The notes under the pieces were generated by a model. The model searched no databases. It was not told where the DNA came from and saw nothing but the letters and a program-made list of their open reading frames with translations. Made by a program: the position numbers and the translations under genes. Below are positions 4,372-41,802 of a stretch of 64,000 nt of DNA, in pieces. The stretch is taken from IMG/VR virus record IMGVR_UViG_3300022932_000002, positions 1-64,000 of that record, one strand, 5' to 3'. The stretch is from a virus. The number at the start of each line of letters is the position of its first letter. Position 1 is the first letter of the stretch.

Positions 4372-4431
4372 AGTTTTTACTTTAAATTTGATTAAATAAA
4401 AATCCCCAATAAATTAATATTAGGGATTAAG

Positions 4432-4514
4432 TGCTCTGAAGGGGACTCGAACCCCTATGCCTAACGGCGGCAAATTTTAAGTCTGCTATGTATACCAAGT
4501 TTCATCACCAGAGC
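4432..4514 (-). tRNA. tRNA-Leu (anticodon TAA), type II with long variable arm
   Basis: Hand-folded cloverleaf: acceptor GCTCTGG/TCAGAGC, anticodon stem GCAGA/TTTGC, loop CTTAAAA, variable arm GCC-GTTA-GGC, T arm AGGGG-TTCGAGT-CCCCT. No encoded CCA. Confidence 0.85.
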
Positions 4515-7599: not shown

Positions 7600-7631
7600 A
7601 ATATTAGTTTTTAGTTGTTTATAATTTATAG

Positions 7632-7705
7632 CGATTCTAGAAGGATTCAAACCTTCAACCTATGTCTTAGAAGGACATGGCTCTATTCAGTTGAGCTATA
7701 GAATC
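7632..7705 (-). tRNA. tRNA-Arg (anticodon TCT)
   Basis: Cloverleaf: acceptor GATTCTA/TAGAATC, D stem GCTC/GAGC, anticodon stem ATGTC/GACAT, loop CTTCTAA, T arm GAAGG-TTTGAAT-CCTTC. D loop lacks GG and T loop has T instead of C56. Confidence 0.85.
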
Positions 7706-7900: not shown

Positions 7901-7922
7901 TTTATTTATTTTTAATTAATAG

Positions 7923-7996
7923 TGGTCCCACACAGGCTCGAACTGTGGACCCACAGATTATGAGTCTGTTGCTCTAACCAACTGAGCTATAGGACC
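7923..7996 (-). tRNA. tRNA with CAT anticodon (elongator Met type, or Ile2 if lysidine-modified)
   Basis: Cloverleaf: GGTCCTA/TGGGACC acceptor, GCTC-AGTTGGTTA-GAGC, anticodon stem ACAGA/TCTGT, loop CTCATAA, T arm CACAG-TTCGAGC-CTGTG. Not initiator-like (G1-C72, no GGG/CCC in anticodon stem). Confidence 0.9.
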
Positions 7997-18672: not shown

Positions 18673-19044
18673 TTAACTACAATATTCATCAATTATTTTT
18701 TTGCAATAATTTGTTCCCATTCTGTTTAAACCTCCCTCCTCCCAAAAGGTTGAATTATCATGTAGATCTTGAACTCTCCCCAGAAACTCTAAACTTAATT
18801 CTTGTATTTCTTTAGACAATGCGGTAGGGTAGTTTTTAATTAAATCATCTACTCCTCCTTCACATTCTACTATTTCTTTATACTGAGGATGGTTTTCATC
18901 TATGTCCAATCCAATAGCGCATTTTCTACCATCTTTTGTCCTATAAACACATAATTCTCCTTGTACAGCTCTTCTTTTTAAATCTTCTGAATAGTAAGCC
19001 ACTTTAGAATCCAAGTATGCTTTTCTTCTCTCTTGTATTGTCAT
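18673..19044 (-). CDS. hypothetical protein (Cys motif GRKCAIG)
   Basis: ORF track. Confidence 0.6.
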   Translation of the reverse strand: MTIQERRKAYLDSKVAYYSEDLKRRAVQGELCVYRTKDGRKCAIGLDIDENHPQYKEIVECEGGVDDLIKNYPTALSKEIQELSLEFLGRVQDLHDNSTFWEEGGLNRMGTNYCKKIIDEYCS

Positions 19045-22487: not shown

Positions 22488-24159
22488 CTACTTAACTCTC
22501 ACATTTACTATGCAAAGCATAACAATTTTACTAATCTTTTAAAATAATAGAGTGTGCTTAGCTTCTGACGCTGTTATACACCACATTTTCCTCTCTATTA
22601 CCACCTGTACTTGCGTCAAGACACTTCTGTCTGTTTGACTCCAACTATAACTCAGGGTTAGTATTATAAATTAAACTAGGACTACTCCTAAACACTAATC
22701 GTAGGCTACCTCTAAGAGGGAACTAGTTTAATTTAATATTTTAAAAACAACTACAATTATTTAATAATATATAGGTTTTCACCATTATTAAAATAATCGT
22801 AGTTATTTAAGTGTCTACAATTACTGGTACGCATAGGACCGCCAGATTTACATTATAGATAAATATTTTAAAAACAACTATCTGTCACATTTCCAGTGTG
22901 AATATATAATAATATGCAACTTTATACGACTCACGTAGTGTCCACATAAAATATACATCTCTACAATAAACAAACAGCTAACTGGATTAGCTTATAATAA
23001 ACACGATATTATCCTCGTTAGTTTCACACCATTTATTACTGTTTATCTTCAAGCAGATAGTTGTCAATTCTTTTAATAATAACAGACTTTAACTGTTTGT
23101 AATATCTCTTCTGGAAATTCTATTAGAATTAAGTACAGTTCAATTTTTATACAAGCTATGAATTTCACATATATTTTTATTAGATATTTAGGCTCACTAT
23201 TCAAACTTCAACATTACTAATGCTACCTGCTATTAATAACTCAATTCTTTCGTGGCTAATATTATCATCGATATGATAATACTTACTCGTTTATATCTAA
23301 TATTTCCCCTCCATACTCAATTATAATGAGTGTTTCCATCACTCTAGGTTTCACCTCAACAGAATCTCTTCTTATCTCAGCTATTACAACTGCTATCCCT
23401 TGGGAGTTGATTACTATCACATTCAACTAGTAGCCTCTCATATTTATATAACATGGTTATGCTTTCATCGGTGGTTTTTAGTAGTCAAGTGGTTTTACAT
23501 CTTATAGGTTAGCCAAGCTTTTGTCAAGCTGATAAACACAGTGCAGAAGTCTCTATATCCACGATAGAATGGTATGTTAAAGAGAAGGCTTTGAACCACT
23601 AGAGACTTATAACAACTATAATTTTCAAATTGCTGTCTTAATCTAGTATCCTTCCATAGGTGCATTATAATACAAAGGCATCTCACCTCTTTCACTTTGT
23701 AACTAGTGTTACATCAGAGGTATGTATTACTCTGTACCAGACTTTTAACCGAATGTAGTGTGGCTGTTTTCTAACTAGCTTAAACATTGCTATCAGCGGC
23801 AATTATCTTAAAAATACTATTGTGGCCTCGTTACAAATCAACTTAGCATACAATGTAGGTGTACCCTCAATAGTATTAATATAAAAGGAATAGTAGATAA
23901 TAAATGATAAGTTAGCTTTACTTATCCTATAGACTGCTGCCATAGTTTACTTCTACTATTCCAATTCATGAGTAAGTCTCCGCGAGTCTAAGTGGTAGTG
24001 ACACAAAGACATCTAATACAGTATTAATATAGTTCCGGGAGAAACTACATCACTATATTACCTCAATAAAGCTTCATCCCAGTCTTATGTGGTCAGTTTT
24101 ATTTAAAAGGAGCAGAGACTTACTTAATAGTTTTGGTATGAAACACACTTTCTATACCT

Positions 24160-24196
24160 AATATTTTAGAAAGAGAATCACCCTTCCTCAGGGTGA
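24160..24196 (-). terminator. terminator-like hairpin
   Basis: CACCCT-tcctc-AGGGTG at 24179-24195, followed on the minus strand by ATTCTCTTTCTAAAATATT. Confidence 0.4.
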
Positions 24197-24277
24197 AACT
24201 CTAATGTTATTTACATGTTTTCATTGAATACAAACTCCCTTGTAGTCAATACTCCATCAGCTAACACCAACATGGTA

Positions 24278-24382
24278 TTAACGTTTAGATGTAGATTTAA
24301 TTACTCTGTTAGCAAAGATTGCAGACTTCTTAAGTCTTTTCAACAATGCTTTCTCTTCTGATGTTTTGGTAAATGCTGACAT
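24278..24382 (-). CDS. possible small basic protein (34 aa)
   Basis: Hand-found ORF MSAFTKTSEEKALLKRLKKSAIFANRVIKSTSKR. Speculative. Confidence 0.3.
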   Translation of the reverse strand: MSAFTKTSEEKALLKRLKKSAIFANRVIKSTSKR

Positions 24383-24407
24383 AATGATTGGATTTAAAGG
24401 GTTTAAA

Positions 24408-24503
24408 TTATCTTACTAAGCCAAGTACATTGAGTACAATAGCAATAATAACTGGAACAGCTAATACAGCTCCTACAGTGAGATTAATAACACTAGGTTT
24501 CAT
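24408..24503 (-). CDS. possible small membrane peptide (31 aa)
   Basis: Hand-found ORF MKPSVINLTVGAVLAVPVIIAIVLNVLGLVR. Speculative. Confidence 0.35.
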   Translation of the reverse strand: MKPSVINLTVGAVLAVPVIIAIVLNVLGLVR

Positions 24504-24517
24504 ATATGGATTGATTG

Positions 24518-24555
24518 ATTACAAAGAATAAGAGAGAGCCATTACAGCCCTCTCT
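24518..24555 (-). terminator. intrinsic terminator after ORF 24564..24896
   Basis: On the minus-strand RNA: AGAGAGGGC-UGUAAUG-GCUCUCUCU, a 9-bp stem whose one non-Watson-Crick pair is G-U only on this strand, then UAUUCUUUG. Confidence 0.6.
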
Positions 24556-24563
24556 AAATGATA

Positions 24564-24896: not shown

Positions 24897-25092
24897 AACT
24901 TTGGGATTTTAAATGATTACTTTGTTTATATATTTGCTAGGGGGACATTTCCCCGCCAAATTCGAGTAGGGGTGAAGTTTGGAGTTACTCATCACACACA
25001 GTTATAAAAATCCAAAAATAAAATGCCAGAAAATAATATTAAAACATAATCAATTCTAAATTAATTGTTTACCTTTGAATAAAATACAAAAG
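24897..25092. promoter_or_regulatory. divergent intergenic switch region with Bacteroidota-type -7 boxes
   Basis: TAnnTTTG on plus at 24929-24936 (TATATTTG) and 25070-25077 (TACCTTTG), and on minus at 25013-25020 (plus CAAAAATA). GGGG-acattt-CCCC hairpin at 24941-24954. Clean -33 TTG spacing not found. Confidence 0.45.
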
Positions 25093-25299
25093 ATGAAGAT
25101 AACAAGAGAAGGAATTAAGTTTGAGAACACATTCATTATCAATTTTGATAATAAACCTACAGGAATTGAAATCATGAAAGATTCTTTACCTATGACAATT
25201 GAGGGTGGAGTATTTCTAGGAATGCCTATGAGAAAAGGATTTTTTGGTAAAATAAAAATGTGTTATAAGTTTTATACATATATTAAATATTTTGAATAA
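25093..25299 (+). CDS. hypothetical protein
   Basis: ORF 25075..25299 trimmed to the first ATG (MKITREG). Confidence 0.55.
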   Translation: MKITREGIKFENTFIINFDNKPTGIEIMKDSLPMTIEGGVFLGMPMRKGFFGKIKMCYKFYTYIKYFE

Positions 25300-25679
25300 T
25301 GAATGAAGAAGTAACAGACGAACCATTAGATTATGTAGCTAATCTAGAAGTTCCTAAGAAAGAAGAAGAAACCAAAGTGAGAAATGTATATTCTAGGAAA
25401 GACTTTTTGAATTTACCTTTCCATGACTCAGACGCATCTATTTTTACATGTATTAAAGAGAACTCAGACAATTCTGAAACACCTATTTGGTATGGTATAG
25501 ACTGTAAGATTAAAGATTGTACTCACTTAATAACATTATCCTTTGGAATTAGAGATGACGAGATGTATAAAAATTCTCTTTATAAGTTAGATACAATGAT
25601 TCAACACTTAATAGAATTTAAAGATGCTTTAATAAAAGAAAAAGCACATTATGAGACAAATCTTAAATTAAAGAAATAA
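25299..25679 (+). CDS. hypothetical protein
   Basis: ORF track; TAATG overlap with the upstream gene. Confidence 0.65.
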   Translation: MNEEVTDEPLDYVANLEVPKKEEETKVRNVYSRKDFLNLPFHDSDASIFTCIKENSDNSETPIWYGIDCKIKDCTHLITLSFGIRDDEMYKNSLYKLDTMIQHLIEFKDALIKEKAHYETNLKLKK

Positions 25680-26125
25680 TGGAAAAAAGATATTACACAC
25701 CAACTGTAGAAGAAATTTATAGCGATATAGAATTACATTATTATGATGGTAAAACTAGGGATGGTTTTTTTATAAATCCTTATGTTTATAGAGATAATCT
25801 GCAAATAATAGATATCTGTAAAGAGTTTAAATCAGAAAAATTTAGAGTCAAATACTTAGATAAAGATGATATTGAAGAAGTATTAGATGTTAAACAATTA
25901 AAGGGAGATTCAATAGAATTAAACTTTCAACTACCAATAAATGATTATTTATTTTATGAATTTGATTATGATATGGAAACTATGCAACTTAGTGTAGAAA
26001 GATTCTATCAAACTAAATTAGTAGCAAAAGATACAGGAGAATATGTTTCACATACTATATTTCAAGGAGTAATTAAAAATAAATCTGAATTAAAAAAACT
26101 AATGAAACAGTTGCAGATTAATTAA
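25679..26125 (+). CDS. hypothetical protein
   Basis: ORF track; TAATG overlap with the upstream gene. Confidence 0.65.
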   Translation: MEKRYYTPTVEEIYSDIELHYYDGKTRDGFFINPYVYRDNLQIIDICKEFKSEKFRVKYLDKDDIEEVLDVKQLKGDSIELNFQLPINDYLFYEFDYDMETMQLSVERFYQTKLVAKDTGEYVSHTIFQGVIKNKSELKKLMKQLQIN

Positions 26126-26140
26126 TTTTAGTTATATTTG
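26111..26140 (+). promoter_or_regulatory. Bacteroidota-type promoter (TTG-N19-TATATTTG)
   Basis: TTG 26111-26113, 19-nt spacer, TAnnTTTG 26133-26140. Same TATATTTGCTA core as at 24929. Confidence 0.5.
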
Positions 26141-26146
26141 CTACAA

Positions 26147-26310
26147 GATTAAGGAATAAGAACCATCTATCACTGTTGCCCCAACACATCAGATGAGTAC
26201 GTTAGATAGTAGGCCAGCTAATTCTAACTTCTCTAAGGCTAGAGAAACAATAAGCCAGACTATTGACATAGTTTTTATCCTCTAGATGAAATATTCTAGA
26301 GGATTTTTTT
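26147..26310 (+). ncRNA. candidate small RNA (about 165 nt) bounded by promoter box and strong terminator
   Basis: Lies between the 26133-26140 -7 box and the perfect terminator at 26277-26310. The only internal ORF is 30 codons and ends inside the terminator stem. Confidence 0.4.
26277..26310 (+). terminator. rho-independent terminator
   Basis: Perfect 10-bp stem ATCCTCTAGA / TCTAGAGGAT, 8-nt loop, then TTTTTTT. Confidence 0.85.
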
Positions 26311-26339
26311 GTTTATATGAATATTAATACTTACATTTG
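26309..26339 (+). promoter_or_regulatory. Bacteroidota-type promoter (TTG-N20-TACATTTG)
   Basis: TTG 26309-26311, 20-nt spacer, TAnnTTTG 26332-26339. Confidence 0.5.
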
Positions 26340-26345
26340 TTAGAA

Positions 26346-26706
26346 CAATTTCTGTGACAAGAAATAAAGATAAAGTCCTTAGAAATAAGGTATCATTGTA
26401 TTTAAAATGATAGAACTTGCATAGCCTAATAAAGATGGATGATGCTTGGATCAGGTAAATACTGTTATTAAGTTAACAGCTAAACAAAAACAATAGAAAG
26501 AATGAGTTAGATGGTTCAATTGTTCTGTTGCACAAGCAGCAGTTTTTACTGGGGATTCGATGATTACCAAAAACACATGGAGGAGAGGAGGTAATCAAGT
26601 TATATCCTTAAGTTATCTTTATCTTCTTTCAAACTACAAATAAATATTTGATCATATATTATTTGCAAATAGTGTCTTATAGTTTTTACTATAGGATTTT
26701 TATTTG
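26346..26706 (+). ncRNA. candidate non-coding RNA (about 360 nt)
   Basis: No ORF longer than 27 codons. Hairpins CCTTA-GAAA-TAAGG (about 26377-26390), ATCATT/AATGAT, CTGTTA/TAACAG (26462-26479). Long-range 9-bp complement AGAACAATT (26342-26350) / AATTGTTCT (26518-26526). Terminator-like 3' end. Confidence 0.35.
26676..26706 (+). terminator. terminator-like hairpin
   Basis: CTTATAGT-tttt-ACTATAGG (8 bp, one G-U), then ATTTTTATTTG. Confidence 0.45.
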
Positions 26707-26770
26707 TCTTATTTTTAAAATTAAATTATAATTTTATAGTTAGTTATTAAAATATTTATATCTTTGTGAA

Positions 26771-26977
26771 ATGGAAGATAAAATTAAGACAAATAAAAAG
26801 TATTCTAGAGAAGAAATAGAAGATGTAGCTAATAATTTATTAGATAAAGTTTATGCGGATAAAGAATTTCAAGAATTAGATAAGAAATCAAGAAGAGATT
26901 TTATATTATCTGGTACATGTGATATTTCATTAACTGAATTAGAAAATATTGCTAAAAAAGTATTAAAAGATGAATAA
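26771..26977 (+). CDS. hypothetical protein
   Basis: ORF track. Confidence 0.6.
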   Translation: MEDKIKTNKKYSREEIEDVANNLLDKVYADKEFQELDKKSRRDFILSGTCDISLTELENIAKKVLKDE

Positions 26978-27347
26978 GACTTATACAATAAAGAAAGATA
27001 TAAGAACCTTCTACAGAGCTTATATAGAGCTGATGAGACCATTCTTAAAGGGAATGAGAAAAAGAGAAGCTGATGTATTTAGTGAATTATTATATCAAAA
27101 CTATGTAAAACAAGATATTAAGAATTCAGAGGATAGGTTTAAAGTAATATTCAATTCCGATAATAGGAAAATGATGGAAACTAATCTTAATGTTAGTACA
27201 GATGTATTTGCAGTTACTTTAAGTTCATTAAAGAAAAAAGGATTAGTAGAATATAATAATACTATTAAGGAGTTATTTCTTATTGTACCTATAGATAATC
27301 AATTCTCTGTAAGTTTTAATTTTGAAATTCAAGTTGATAATGGATGA
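26970..27347 (+). CDS. hypothetical protein
   Basis: ORF track; 8-nt overlap upstream. Confidence 0.65.
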   Translation: MNKTYTIKKDIRTFYRAYIELMRPFLKGMRKREADVFSELLYQNYVKQDIKNSEDRFKVIFNSDNRKMMETNLNVSTDVFAVTLSSLKKKGLVEYNNTIKELFLIVPIDNQFSVSFNFEIQVDNG

Positions 27348-30425: not shown

Positions 30426-30701
30426 ATGAATTTTTCAAGGATTAAAATAAGTGCTTATATTACAACTCCGGATGCACTGAGATTAAATGAATTGTATCCG
30501 GAGAGAGAATCAGAAGAAGATGACTTCCATATAAAAAATGTTTACATTATTCCTTGTAATATAAATTTCTATTATGAGGATCACTTTTTAAATAAACCTT
30601 GTTTAATCCTTGTAACAAATGCAGGGGAAGTAGTGTCTAATATGACACTTAAACAATTTGAAAATATACTGACAAATCAATATGGAATTTCTAAGAATTA
30701 A
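30426..30701 (+). CDS. hypothetical protein
   Basis: ORF track; overlaps the terminase start by 20 nt. Confidence 0.55.
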   Translation: MNFSRIKISAYITTPDALRLNELYPERESEEDDFHIKNVYIIPCNINFYYEDHFLNKPCLILVTNAGEVVSNMTLKQFENILTNQYGISKN

Positions 30702-32988
30702 TAATAGAAAGAATTTCTTAATTACTTCTGTTCCAACATTGCATCCTCAGTCATTAGATTATATTCAATACTGGAAGTCCCAAAAGAAAAGATGTATTGA
30801 AGGATTTTGGTCACAAGATAATAAGGATATAGAAGTAAATGTAGATGAAGAGTTACCAGATGAGTTATTGAACTTGTCTGGTAATTGGCGTTTTATGCCA
30901 GGCAACTGTTACTTCTATGTAAACTTCTGTACTATCTTGCATAAACCAGAAGATGCTCCTAAGTCTGCACCTAAGAAAAAGATTAGACCTTTACTTAGAG
31001 ATATAGAATGGGAATTCTTTTACAACTGGTTAGAAGCTAGAGGATTTAGTGGTTATAGTGATGATGAGAAGTATACTTGCCACAGAGATCTAATAGATGC
31101 TGGTGATAAAACTGGATTTAAATTTGATTCTAGTTGCTACAATAGCAAAGGAGATTTAAAGGAATATATTAATGCTAGAGATTATCTTAGATTACTTCAA
31201 GATAAACCTTTAGGCATTCCATTGTATCAGAATAGAGCTTCTGATTTATTTCTATTAGGTTCAAGGGGTTTAGGTAAATCTTTCTTAGTGGGTGCAGGGG
31301 TAGTACTCCATGAGCTTGTATTTGACGGAGCTAAAATATACAATGATGATTCTATTAAGAATCCTTATAAAGTTGAAATCTTTGTAGGTGCAGCATTGTC
31401 TTCTAAATCAGCTGATATCTTAAAGAAGACTAAAGAAGCTATGGATAGTTTACCAGGAGCATATGGTGATAATACTCATGCGTATGTACCTTCTCCTCTT
31501 TCTAAACAAATGAAAGGTACATTGGGACCTAACAATATGAAAAATCCTTGGGTACATGAGTATTCAAAGAAATTAGGAGGATCATGGAAAACATTAGGAA
31601 GCGGAAGTAATATTAAACATGGTATCTATACTATAGAGAATCCAGAAGCGGCAGCTGGTGGAAGATACTCAGTAATGGTAGTTGAAGAGTGGGGTCTTTT
31701 ACCTAACTCTCTTACAGTACAAGGTTCTAATGATGCAACTATGCAAGATGCACCTTGGAAGTTTGGGTCTTGTGTGTGGATTGGTACAGGTGGTAACGTT
31801 GAAAAGATTCAAGAAGGTGAGATTATGTTTAGAGATCCTGAAGGATTTGACGCATTAGCTTTCGATGATATATGGGAAGGCACTGGTAAAATAGGATGGT
31901 TCATTCCTTCCTATTACGCTATGAATGACTATAAGGATGAAAATGGGAATACTTATGTGGAGGAAGCTAAAGCAGTACGAGAAAAGATTCGTGAACAGAA
32001 AAAGAAAGCTAAAGATTCATCAGCATTGGCTTTGGAAATGATGAACTATCCTATAGTTCCAAGTGAAATGTTTTTGAATGCAAAAGGTTCTTTCTTTCCT
32101 CAAGCTGAACTTAAAGCTCATATGGCTGAAGTAATAGCTAAACCTCATCAATATCAAAACACACATTGGTTCGTAGAATTAGTTTGGGATACTAATGGAC
32201 AACTTAAATTAGAGCATTCTTCACCGCAGAAGTTGGTAAGAGAATGGCCTATTAAAGATAATAAAGATAAACCTGGCACAGTAGAGATATTTGAAATGCC
32301 TAAGAAGAATTCATCAGATGAGGTATATCCAGCTAGATATTTACAAGGAACTGACACATATGATGATGATGAGTCGTCTACTAACTCATTAGGATGTACA
32401 TGGATACTAGATTCATGGACAGATAGAATAGTAGCTGAGTATACAGGAAGAAGGGAGACAACAGAATTTTATGAAATTACTCGTAAATTAAATCTATTTT
32501 ATCGAGCTGAACACAATTATGAACAGAATAAGAAAGGACTTTATAGTCATTATAACAATAAAAATTCTACACACTTATTATGTGATACTCCCGAATCTCT
32601 TAAGGATGTCGCCAATATTACAATAAGTAAAATTGGTAATAAGAGAAAAGGAACTTTTGCTAATGCTCATGTTAATGCTCACGGGTTAAGATTAATTAAT
32701 AGCTGGTTGCTAACACCAGCTTATGGAGAAGATGAAAATTCTGAAATTTTAAATTTACATAAGATTAGAAGTATAGGTCTATTACAAGAATTAACTAATT
32801 ACAATTCTACAGGTAACTTTGATAGAGTTTCTGCATTAATTATGTTAATGATATTAAGAGATGAGAAGGTAAAATATGTTGATAGGAAGAAACAACAAGC
32901 ATCAAAAACACTAGCGGAAGATCCTTTCTTTTCTAGAAACTTTAAACCAGCCAAGCAAAGTAAATTTGCAGGTATACATTTAAATTAA
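30682..32988 (+). CDS. terL: terminase large subunit
   Basis: Walker A-like LLGSRGLGKSF, Walker B-like YSVMVVEEWG, later acidic nuclease-type cluster GTDTYDDDES. 768 aa, immediately upstream of the portal-sized gene. Confidence 0.8.
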   Translation: MEFLRINNRKNFLITSVPTLHPQSLDYIQYWKSQKKRCIEGFWSQDNKDIEVNVDEELPDELLNLSGNWRFMPGNCYFYVNFCTILHKPEDAPKSAPKKKIRPLLRDIEWEFFYNWLEARGFSGYSDDEKYTCHRDLIDAGDKTGFKFDSSCYNSKGDLKEYINARDYLRLLQDKPLGIPLYQNRASDLFLLGSRGLGKSFLVGAGVVLHELVFDGAKIYNDDSIKNPYKVEIFVGAALSSKSADILKKTKEAMDSLPGAYGDNTHAYVPSPLSKQMKGTLGPNNMKNPWVHEYSKKLGGSWKTLGSGSNIKHGIYTIENPEAAAGGRYSVMVVEEWGLLPNSLTVQGSNDATMQDAPWKFGSCVWIGTGGNVEKIQEGEIMFRDPEGFDALAFDDIWEGTGKIGWFIPSYYAMNDYKDENGNTYVEEAKAVREKIREQKKKAKDSSALALEMMNYPIVPSEMFLNAKGSFFPQAELKAHMAEVIAKPHQYQNTHWFVELVWDTNGQLKLEHSSPQKLVREWPIKDNKDKPGTVEIFEMPKKNSSDEVYPARYLQGTDTYDDDESSTNSLGCTWILDSWTDRIVAEYTGRRETTEFYEITRKLNLFYRAEHNYEQNKKGLYSHYNNKNSTHLLCDTPESLKDVANITISKIGNKRKGTFANAHVNAHGLRLINSWLLTPAYGEDENSEILNLHKIRSIGLLQELTNYNSTGNFDRVSALIMLMILRDEKVKYVDRKKQQASKTLAEDPFFSRNFKPAKQSKFAGIHLN

Positions 32989-41170: not shown

Positions 41171-41205
41171 AAAGGGAGGAGGAACTAACCTCTTCCCTTT
41201 TTATA
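41171..41205 (+). terminator. rho-independent terminator
   Basis: 12-bp stem AAAGGGAGGAGG / CCTCTTCCCTTT (one G-U), loop AACTAA, then TT. Confidence 0.75.
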
Positions 41206-41214
41206 TTTAAACAA

Positions 41215-41802
41215 ATGGCATTAGAATTAAACTTTTCCACATGTGTTAAGAATGCATGTAATAACTTAGTAATTAAAGATACTACAGGAATATTTAGCGG
41301 ATCAACTAATCCAGGAGGTTGGAATGGTGACGATAATTATTCTTTAATAGAAGGAGTTCAAACAGCTACTATACAATATTTACTTCCGGGTGAAACTGAA
41401 TATGTAATAGTAGATGTTGCAGATTTACTTATTCAAGCAGGTGAAGAAGATTCTATTGCAGCAGGAATTCTTTTAGTTGATGAAGATATTGATATTATGG
41501 ATGGTCAAATTCATATTATATATACTGTACAAACAGATGCTACTAATGGTAGTCCATTAGAAACATTTACAACTGAAAGCTATATATATTCCTTATGTCA
41601 TGTAAAATGTTGCGTGAATAAATTATGGGTAAAAGTAGCTGAAGGTTGCGGTTGCTGTAATGATAGTTTAGAAAGAGCTATGGAAGCTACAGCTTTACTC
41701 GAAGCTATTAAAAATGCTGCTTGTGGTTCAGCAGATTTAAGAGATAAACTTTTAGCCAAACTACAACGAATTTGTAAATCTCAAAAATGTAATTGTCATT
41801 AA
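41215..41802 (+). CDS. hypothetical structural protein with Cys-rich C-terminal half
   Basis: CHVKCCVNK...GCGCCND...ACGS...CKSQKCNCH. Confidence 0.65.
   Translation: MALELNFSTCVKNACNNLVIKDTTGIFSGSTNPGGWNGDDNYSLIEGVQTATIQYLLPGETEYVIVDVADLLIQAGEEDSIAAGILLVDEDIDIMDGQIHIIYTVQTDATNGSPLETFTTESYIYSLCHVKCCVNKLWVKVAEGCGCCNDSLERAMEATALLEAIKNAACGSADLRDKLLAKLQRICKSQKCNCH

Follow-up and report, generated by a model that had tools for sequence, protein, structure and literature searches.

Comparative evidence for a structured non-coding RNA gene at the head of the plus-strand gene block of a crAss-like marine phage

We examined 64,000 nucleotides (nt) of viral DNA (positions 1 to 64,000 of IMG/VR record IMGVR_UViG_3300022932_000002; hereafter the window), in which a reading made from the letters alone had proposed two promoter-to-terminator units, unit 1 and unit 2, in a gap between plus-strand genes. 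The window belongs to a crAss-like marine phage. Its large terminase (TerL, 30682-32988) shares 50.5% identity with g094 of phi14:2, a Cellulophaga phage of marine origin within the Crassvirales, and is matched more weakly by gut crAss-like phages; a 95-kb contig of the same phage is present in a Logan assembly. The window has a G+C content of 31%. Its left part carries minus-strand genes, and a plus-strand block that runs from 25075 to ~61.3 kb encodes GroES/GroEL-like proteins, TerL, the portal and structural proteins. It has been reported that the equivalent block of phi14:2 holds the middle and late genes, depends on the host RNA polymerase and has sigma-70-like promoters at its head (10.1101/2020.03.07.982082). 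Here we describe the 645-nt gap at 26126-26770 and present comparative evidence that its unit 2 is a structured, non-coding RNA gene.

The gap itself is non-coding. TAA, TAG and TGA are each present in all six frames, so that the gap would be non-coding under any reassignment of stop codons; this rules out an alternative genetic code that would rescue an open reading frame (ORF) and bears out the earlier view that no credible ORF lies there. The ORFs that do occur have 30 codons (26193-26285) and 27 codons (26511-26594 and 26560-26643). Furthermore, no suppressor was found by an Rfam scan and ARAGORN among the three transfer RNAs (tRNAs) of the window, which are the minus-strand Leu(TAA), Arg(TCT) and Met(CAT) genes at 4431-4514, 7631-7705 and 7922-7996. 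Sequence searches of PHROGs, Pfam, NCBIfam and PDB returned no significant family for the six to eight small ORFs that flank the gap, the next of which is a 68-amino-acid (aa) ORF with its ATG at 26771. The promoters, terminators, hairpins, 9-nt complement and small ORFs listed by the sequence-only reading were all present where it had placed them.

To compare this locus with others, we gathered relatives through an alignment of TerL homologues and took loci from IMG/VR, JGI/TARA and Logan; as single queries, the flanking 125-aa and GroEL proteins led to very distant loci or to none. The first link was an nhmmer search in which unit 2 matched the syntenic gap of three crAss-like loci. From the shared sequence CCUAAUAAAG..GGA.G....UUGGAUCAGGUAAAUAC we built a degenerate core pattern with 22 specified bases. 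This pattern matches the 64-kb window once only (0 expected) and was found in at least 100 IMG/VR stretches, 84 of them unique contexts; family counts from such collection scans are lower bounds. When the exact 17-mer TTGGATCAGGTAAATAC was used as the query, its matches were mostly due to chance and lay inside coding sequence. A covariance model together with a hidden Markov model located the RNA in ~35 crAss-like loci, upstream of TerL and on the TerL strand. In all, the RNA is found in well over a hundred uncultured marine phages of Flavobacteriia. The neighbouring proteins at the RNA locus are only 30-52% identical, and none of the other intergenic gaps near the RNA is conserved. GenBank phages gave no DNA match to the locus or the motif, and phi14:2 carries neither part of the RNA in the 32 kb examined, which include the syntenic region.

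The same pattern was searched in prokaryotes (185,579 species, one genome each), where it occurs in 5 stretches. All five are contigs of metagenome-assembled genomes (MAGs) from Flavobacteriales or Cryomorphaceae, each with a single copy and no arrays. So few single-copy matches indicate a phage element of marine Flavobacteriia, rather than a host housekeeping RNA or a CRISPR repeat. Two kinds of mimicry were tried and rejected on the same data: a CRISPR-repeat mimic, as the core was never in arrays in these genomes, and a sequence mimic of host ribosomal RNA (rRNA), tRNA or RNase P RNA, as the matches are confined to five genomes and do not extend to most Flavobacteriia. UUGGAUCA presumably has 8 nt in common with the 3' end of 16S rRNA, too short a match for testing, and GGAUCAGGUAA presumably resembles a stretch of Escherichia coli RNase P RNA; both serve as leads only.

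Alignment of 70 distinct core sequences yielded 25 invariant columns. The helix P2 of the core is formed by four variable positions on each side of a conserved loop of 19-20 nt. In a MAFFT alignment, 99.6% of 280 P2 cells are paired, compared to 55% in shuffles and 25-49% when the partner strand was slid by 1-3 columns. Both sides change at all four pairs, a level of covariation that none of 500 shuffles reached, and eight cells are G·U. We found stops or 1-nt indels in the reading frames of the core in some members, and the loop varies in length by 1 nt, which argues that the core is not a conserved peptide. The covariance model of the core also detects divergent crAss-like copies in which the big loop has shrunk to 5-7 nt and ACUU and UUGGAUCAG are retained.

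In the ~35 crAss-like loci the core is followed by a series of elements: P3, an A-rich junction (GAACAAAAG), P4 with a GG..GG loop, P5 with its U-run, a GGUGAAGA-like junction, and P6 with an A-run and (U)AGGGAGAGGA in its loop. The P4 stems differ in 19 of 21 phages, and the junction and the GG columns of the loop are conserved (alignment A3). The same alignment shows conservation of ..GCAG and the U-run of P5, the stems of which covary. For P6, 17 distinct stems were counted among 19 phages, with GGGAGA near-invariant in the loop; the purine run GGAGGAGAGGAGG of this loop is the second most G-rich in the window. An anchor-guided hairpin scan, which used invariant alignment columns only and no hand annotation, returned hairpins better than 95% of shuffles (p<=0.05) for P3 in 11, P4 in 12, P5 in 5 and P6 in 10 of 21 RNAs, with ~1 expected. 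Each of the helices P3-P6 is represented by 16-19 different stem sequences, all found verbatim in the loci, and only 2-4% of the combinations of a 5' strand from one phage with a 3' strand from another are fully complementary.

We also aligned P3-P6 of 28 RNAs by hand. In this alignment 98% of 629 cells are paired, compared to 53% after shuffling; as it was built to pair, the percentage itself is not independent evidence, and it is the contrast with the shuffles and the asymmetry between G·U and A·C that count as such. Both sides change at 30 of 33 pairs, and there are 16 G·U cells and no A·C cell, which identifies the plus strand as the functional one. Unit 2 thus shows both compensatory changes and specificity for one strand, as is looked for in a structured non-coding RNA.

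The minimum free energy (MFE) fold of the window sequence reproduces P2-P6. It adds a long-range helix that closes the P3-P4-P5 junction (UUGGAUC 26446-26452 with GAUUCGA 26555-26561, and GGUAAA 26454-26459 with UUUUAC 26544-26549). In the relatives the junction J5/6 has CCAA, UCAA or UUAA opposite an invariant UUGG, which fits this pairing, with variation on one side only. Compared with shuffles, the fold of unit 2 has z = -2.7 and that of 26413-26600 z = -1.4; with such modest scores, the evidence for structure is comparative rather than thermodynamic. The 9-nt complement between 26342-26350 and 26518-26526 that the sequence-only reading had pointed out is present; it is not conserved, and it shares nucleotides with the 3' strand of P4, which in the conserved helix pairs with 26489-26494. 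Three other pairings seen by eye were dropped on inconsistent support: one between CCUAA (P2 loop) and UAGG (purine block), one between ACUU and AGGU, and one that would join the U-run after P5 to the A-rich junction.

Promoters of the Bacteroidetes sigma-A type consist of a -7 element TAnnTTTG and a -33 element TTTG ~19-21 nt upstream. The full pattern TTTG-N17-21-TAnnTTTG has four matches in the window, all of them on the plus strand, and the promoter of unit 2 is one of these four. The association is seen throughout the family: in 65 of the 96 unique copies whose upstream sequence was long enough, an exact TAnnTTTG lies on the RNA strand no more than 120 nt upstream, compared to 8 copies with a box on the opposite strand, and in 46 of these 65 the box lies 10-29 nt upstream of the core. 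The TAtcTTTG variant, as in the box TATCTTTG that precedes the next gene, heads the RNA in loci L016, L017, L019 and L137. At the other end, the terminator scan called P5 with its run of T (26525-26542 plus T5; 7 bp), a site within unit 2 that the earlier reading had not singled out. That reading had placed the end of unit 2 at the distal hairpin (26676-26706); its stem and T-run are present, and its 8 bp, just two of them G-C pairs, leave it below the G-C threshold of the scan. The C/U-rich tract of the 3' tail has counterparts behind the purine block, both in the nearest relatives and in the short-form RNAs described below. The features of the gap are listed in Table 1.

Table 1. Features in and around the gap at 26126-26770 (window positions)
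Feature	Position	Strand	Basis or remark
Unit 1 promoter-like site, GTTG-N19-TATATTTG	26110-26140 (GTTG 26110-26113, box 26133-26140)	+	overlaps the stop codon of a 148-aa ORF
Unit 1 body, orphan G+C-rich stretch	26141-26276	+	G+C up to 40% vs ~22% in the flanks
Intrinsic terminator, 10-bp perfect stem (26277-26304), 8-nt loop, T7	26277-26310	+	terminator scan
RNA promoter, TTTG-N20-TACATTTG	26308-26339 (TTTG 26308-26311, box 26332-26339)	+	Bacteroidetes sigma-A type
Phage-specific 5' leader, hairpins 26377-26390 (CCTTA-GAAA-TAAGG, GAAA loop) and 26391-26412	26340-26414	+	not conserved in relatives
Core: ACUU 26415-26418; P2 GCAU/AUGC 26419-26422/26442-26445; loop AGCCUAAUAAAGAUGGAUG; UUGGAUCAGG 26446-26455	26415-26455	+	
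P3 hairpin CUGUUA/UAACAG (26462-26467/26474-26479)	26462-26479	+	hairpin at this place in 17 of 21 class-A RNAs, 16 distinct stems
A-rich junction AACAAAAA and P4, AACAAU 26489-26494/AUUGUU 26519-26524, loop ..GAUGGUU..	26480-26524	+	
P5, CUGUUGC-ACAA-GCAGCAG plus U5, terminator-like	26525-26547	+	terminator scan; conserved in all crAss-type copies
J5/6 and P6, UGAUUACC 26561-26568/GGUAAUCA 26590-26597, purine-rich loop GGAGGAGAGGAGG 26579-26591	26548-26597	+	
3' tail: C/U-rich tract 26617-26633, A/U-rich sequence, distal terminator-like hairpin 26676-26699 plus T-run	26598-26706	+	
Further -7-like box TATCTTTG	26759-26766	+	4 nt before ATG 26771; alone at chance level; may be the gene's own promoter

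Most of the IMG/VR matches represent a short form of the RNA. In it the core comes after the promoter, in some copies with a 5' hairpin between the two, and is followed in turn by an A/U hairpin, a UAGGRGG-like block and a (CUUUU)n tract of 40-60 nt. It lies in unrelated phages between a lysis cassette (endolysin, holin phrog_3427 and a 44-aa basic ORF) and a NinG/Rap gene (phrog_5034). About 88% of the short-form copies are co-oriented with the next gene. Seven unique copies from two lineages are inverted relative to both flanking genes (L126, L127, L136, L154, L184, L189 and L213); they keep the promoter and the core, and their direction converges with that of one neighbour (holin or NinG) and diverges from that of the other. 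The inverted copies suggest that the core works without a co-oriented downstream gene and behaves as an autonomous gene. The copies of the crAss type are always co-oriented and stand at the head of the late block, so that the placement before the chaperonin and packaging genes that had been remarked on for the window extends to its crAss-like relatives. The first downstream gene varies in these phages (the 68-aa ORF in the window, a patatin in L311, others elsewhere), and no phage protein was found to accompany the RNA constantly across the two forms.

The two halves of the RNA can part company. In L013:130-405, L021:1000-1228, L223:1790-1988 and L308:2000-2215 (also L309), P3-P6 come with another 5' domain, in which a longer hairpin and then CUACUAGGUCUU take the place of ACUU..UUGGAUCAG; by their downstream 125-aa protein, L308/L309 are the closest relative of the window. 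Some copies have the core but not the 3' domain, others the reverse, and two 5' domains alternate within the crAss-like clade. These findings suggest that the halves of the RNA are exchangeable modules.

Several features of the surroundings were recorded along the way. A conserved and extremely basic ORF of 43-44 aa (..RKRKGIH.K.K.S..KSSKNYFK.YKGQG[RK]*), which has no match to a PHROG family, follows the holin gene and ends ~46 nt before the short-form RNA, which it always precedes (loci include L148, L150, L120 and L153). Two Cryomorphaceae MAG contigs (L218:305-1469 and L220:594-1709) have two tRNAs ~400 nt upstream of the RNA, and in a viral contig (L129) a single tRNA lies 20 nt before it. 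Beyond the MAG copies the non-coding sequence is longer and richer in G+C, and the copies beside tRNA genes may be integrated elements. A protein of the Acb2/Tad1-hairpin (anti-defence) type is encoded just upstream of the RNA in L310:2687-2938, and the patatin-like phospholipase gene of L311 (2349-3302) is inserted between the RNA and the conserved 125-aa gene. Intein/homing-endonuclease domains (PF05204, PF14528) lie inside the TerL of P0027, P0040, P0085 and P0109; in one lineage, domains of the same types occur in the GroEL-like gene (L305:3692-6172) that encodes 826 aa, compared to ~500 aa.

Unit 1 had been read as a second independent transcription unit, and this part of the sequence-only reading gained no support. 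Exact TAnnTTTG boxes number 62 on the plus strand and 28 on the minus strand of the AT-rich window, and the -33 element of unit 1 is GTTG, imperfect compared to TTTG; with so common a box and so imperfect a partner, the promoter of unit 1 is at chance level. The terminator is indeed of the textbook kind, and it is the strongest plus-strand terminator-like site in the 24-29 kb scan. Searches with nhmmer, blastn and tblastx found no homologue of unit 1 in ~310 related loci. In the relatives L303, L304, L305, L311 and L022 a terminator hairpin alone occupies the equivalent site, directly before the RNA promoter. The crAss-like relatives share the order of upstream gene, terminator hairpin, -7 box and RNA with the window, which is peculiar in having ~135 nt of orphan sequence before the terminator as well as a 75-nt leader with two private hairpins. 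The terminator probably ends the operon at 25075-26125, and unit 1 is most likely the 3' untranslated region (UTR) and terminator of that upstream three-gene operon. It is rather unlikely, in our view, that unit 1 is a separate strain-specific small RNA (sRNA) of ~165 nt that runs from the box to 26310. Such an RNA would account for the exact -7 box with TTG 19 nt upstream, for a fold with z = -3.6 compared with shuffles, for the raised G+C content and for the strong terminator at the end, but the chance-level promoter and the lack of homologues in those loci speak against it, and an RNA derived from a 3' UTR would have the same look. In L311:2075-2110 and in L022, the RNA-promoter box TATATTTG lies inside the loop of the upstream terminator hairpin (AAAUCUACC-UUAUAUUUGU-AGGGUAGAUUU), so that terminator and promoter overlap.

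Unit 2 did not match a known RNA family. At the gathering threshold, Rfam 15, whose families include tmRNA, 6S, RNase P, riboswitches, ribozymes, HEARO, GOLLD and ROOL, returned only the three tRNAs of the window, and at E<=10 the region 25900-27000 gave four sub-threshold chance matches, the best of which paired the unit 1 terminator with NsiR1 at 19.9 bits against a threshold of 39. Rfam likewise found nothing over the motif in six other family members and the five MAG copies, and ARAGORN found no tRNA or transfer-messenger RNA in the gap. Full-text searches of the literature turned up no description of the motif, nor of such an RNA in Flavobacteriia or crAss-like phages. We therefore treat the RNA as a putative new family within the known category of phage-encoded structured non-coding RNAs.

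Three phage systems invite comparison. The PR'-6S-tR' arrangement of phage lambda shares with the window a host-polymerase promoter that heads late genes, a short, structured, terminated transcript, and late genes that follow directly in the same orientation. The two are alike neither in sequence nor in structure, the 6S transcript itself is not known to be a conserved folded RNA with invariant loops, a Q-like gene or a qut-type DNA site was not identified in this phage, and the core of the unit 2 RNA also occurs away from late operons and even inverted. The put RNAs of phage HK022, cis-acting antiterminators that modify the polymerase, resemble it as small folded RNAs right after a promoter with terminators downstream, and the short-form core begins 10-29 nt past its -7 box. 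However, put sites have two stem-loops and occur twice per genome, whereas the unit 2 RNA is present in one copy, and its hairpin stands between invariant single-stranded segments; no homology was seen, and the inverted copies of the core have no co-oriented genes to antiterminate. The pRNA of phi29 is likewise an independently transcribed phage RNA (~120-170 nt) in which structure is conserved over sequence, and the RNA of the window adjoins packaging genes as well. Its fold is unlike that of the unit 2 RNA, which shows no sign of intermolecular loop-loop pairing, and the short-form copies, between lysis and recombination genes, are away from packaging genes.

It has been previously reported that the g004-g005 and g005-g006 junctions of phi14:2 produce highly transcribed intergenic long non-coding RNAs (lncRNAs) of unknown function (10.1101/2020.03.07.982082). 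These come from the same clade and from long intergenic regions, but they belong to the early region and to the virion polymerase, whereas the unit 2 RNA lies on the middle/late strand behind a host-type promoter. The window has two non-coding stretches of ~0.9-1 kb each on its minus-strand, early side (22488-23494 and 23696-24563), the phi14:2 counterpart of which is these lncRNAs; the early-side gaps in 22488-24563 gave no Rfam match and no sequence conservation in the fetched loci.

We consider it about an even chance that unit 2 is what we propose in full, an uncatalogued structured RNA gene that stands alone and docks onto a conserved host factor. Under this proposal, the host RNA polymerase would transcribe the RNA from the near-consensus Bacteroidetes promoter, and the transcript would fold into P2-P6 and end at P5 and its U-run (~210 nt) or at the distal terminator (~360 nt). 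It would act as an RNA rather than as a template for a peptide, as a decoy or scaffold in trans on a conserved host macromolecule. The docking segments would be ACUU and UUGGAUCAG(G) on either side of P2 and, in the crAss type, also the loop of P4 and the purine-rich loop of P6. The invariant parts are single-stranded segments and loops, as would result from a tertiary fold or from recognition by a macromolecule; what we infer is the partner and the action in trans. Sites in the window complementary to the RNA number 8, compared to 3 expected, a mild excess to which no meaning can be attached, as the sites are scattered in coding regions on both strands.

Several findings weigh against this proposal. 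The trans mode is argued mainly from the inverted minority. All crAss-type copies are co-oriented with the late operon, stand at its head and contain the conserved, terminator-like P5, and in this they are built like a cis leader. Between the short-form copies and the next gene a clear intrinsic terminator is missing, so that these copies may be read through as 5' leaders. Among the neighbouring ORFs of both forms, no partner is constantly encoded beside the RNA, and no cultured phage with the RNA was found among GenBank phages. The pair counts of P3-P6 come from a hand alignment that leans towards pairing, and MAFFT with RNAalifold on the full-length RNAs recovered only P2, as MAFFT sets the stems out of register.

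The main rival, which we hold to be possible though somewhat unlikely, is a cis-acting leader of the middle/late operon, either an attenuator or a site of processive antitermination like put or nut, with the PR'-6S-tR' arrangement of lambda as a parallel. Core, P3 and P4 would then sense a phage or host factor and decide between termination at P5, P6 and the distal terminator and read-through into p125, GroES-GroEL, TerL and the structural genes. The constant position of the crAss-type copies, ahead of the conserved p125 gene block and in the orientation of TerL, is as expected of such a leader, and so are the conserved P5 with its U-run and the three terminator-like hairpins in a row before a gene block of ~35 kb with few gaps. 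For phi14:2, the host-polymerase promoters P110 and P108 were reported at the head of the block, and late promoters separate from these were not (10.1101/2020.03.07.982082). The first AUG follows the purine-rich loop of P6 at a distance of 8-35 nt in many relatives, and the co-oriented majority of the short-form copies lack a terminator of their own. On the other hand, the obligate co-orientation of a riboswitch or attenuator, kept in all crAss-type copies, fails in the seven inverted ones, and the first downstream gene is not constant. An anti-terminator pairing of the core with the 5' strand of P5 was not seen by eye, no formal search having been made. The next gene of the window begins 180 nt past P6 behind a -7-like box of its own, and phi14:2, the relative with transcriptome data, is without the element in the 32 kb searched. 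For the crAss-type form, a stand-alone RNA and a cis leader need not exclude each other.

The other explanations fare worse. That the core, a hairpin between the invariant ACUU and UUGGAUCAG, is a small self-cleaving ribozyme or a fixed signal for processing by a nuclease that defines the RNA ends would suit the short covarying stems with invariant junction nucleotides, the occurrence in either orientation and the copies that adjoin tRNA genes; we think it very unlikely, as no Rfam ribozyme matched even at E<=10, the large conserved P2 loop is dispensable in distant members, the remainder of the RNA is not the same in the two forms, and no common catalytic core beyond ~13 nt is evident. A DNA-level element (a replication origin, packaging site or protein-binding site with hairpins in single-stranded DNA) might be suspected from the location at module boundaries and from the polypyrimidine/polypurine tracts after the short-form copies, but the 8 G·U cells of P2 and the G·U to A·C asymmetry of P3-P6 fit a plus-strand transcript only, position and orientation relative to the promoter are fixed, and the copies are not enriched at contig ends by a reading of their coordinates rather than a formal test. 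This makes it highly improbable. We give as little credence to messenger RNAs (mRNAs) for micropeptides, which the sequence-only reading had raised along with a comparison of related phages as the way to tell them from an RNA. The small ORFs do exist, and the AUG at 26511 falls within the conserved AUGGUU of the P4 loop. In the relatives, the ORFs from the equivalent AUG have 6-29 codons, with peptides that align over three residues at most, and the longest ATG ORFs across the members range from 1 to 35 codons at varying positions; it is the helices that covary instead, and that comparison thus gave compensatory changes and no conserved open frame, by which the micropeptide reading is rejected for unit 2. 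For the 30-codon ORF of unit 1 nothing positive was found in support. Furthermore, this is a phage without use of Shine-Dalgarno (SD) sequences, with an SD-like 4-mer before 5 of 66 ORFs compared to a background of 10%. Two other SD-like purine runs, rare in this genome, are AAAGGGAGGAGGAA at 41171-41184 on the plus strand, which precedes the ORF at 41215 by 31 nt, and GGGAGGAGGGAGG at 18731-18743 on the minus strand. Taken together, a host-type promoter, a conserved sequence, five covarying helices and the lack of a conserved ORF uphold the earlier proposal that unit 2 specifies a phage RNA. They speak neither for nor against the roles suggested with it, a regulatory sRNA or an anti-defence decoy.

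As to the partner of a stand-alone RNA, ribosomes of Bacteroidetes normally sequester their anti-SD tail. By analogy, the RNA might be a take-over RNA aimed at Bacteroidetes translation, in which the invariant UUGGAUCAG, with its presumed 8-nt match to the 3'-terminal region of 16S rRNA, and the GGAGG/GGGAGAGGA loop would engage the 30S platform or bS21; this is a long shot, and a decoy for a host defence nuclease is an equally open alternative. A precedent is the OLE RNA, whose own P6 is an SD/anti-SD mimic bound by the ribosomal protein bS21 (PMC12054373). OLE resembles the unit 2 RNA as a large structured non-coding RNA that displays an SD-like purine run, and it shows that such an RNA can engage a component of the small subunit; it is, however, an RNA of ~600 nt from Bacillota without homology to unit 2, where, unlike in OLE, the purine run lies in a loop or beside a C/U tract and no CCUCC partner is conserved. 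If true, a take-over RNA would retune which mRNAs initiate late in infection.

To our knowledge, few of the structured RNAs encoded by phages have a known role, and hardly any of those come from phages of Bacteroidota. These bacteria are dominant in the ocean and the gut, and the motif occurs in at least 100 viral contigs of several unrelated phage types. We suggest that unit 2 deserves annotation as an RNA gene rather than as empty intergenic DNA. The RNA sits at the entry to the crAss-like late operon, where the switch to late transcription remains unexplained, and may offer a handle on that switch or on a new RNA interaction between phage and host.

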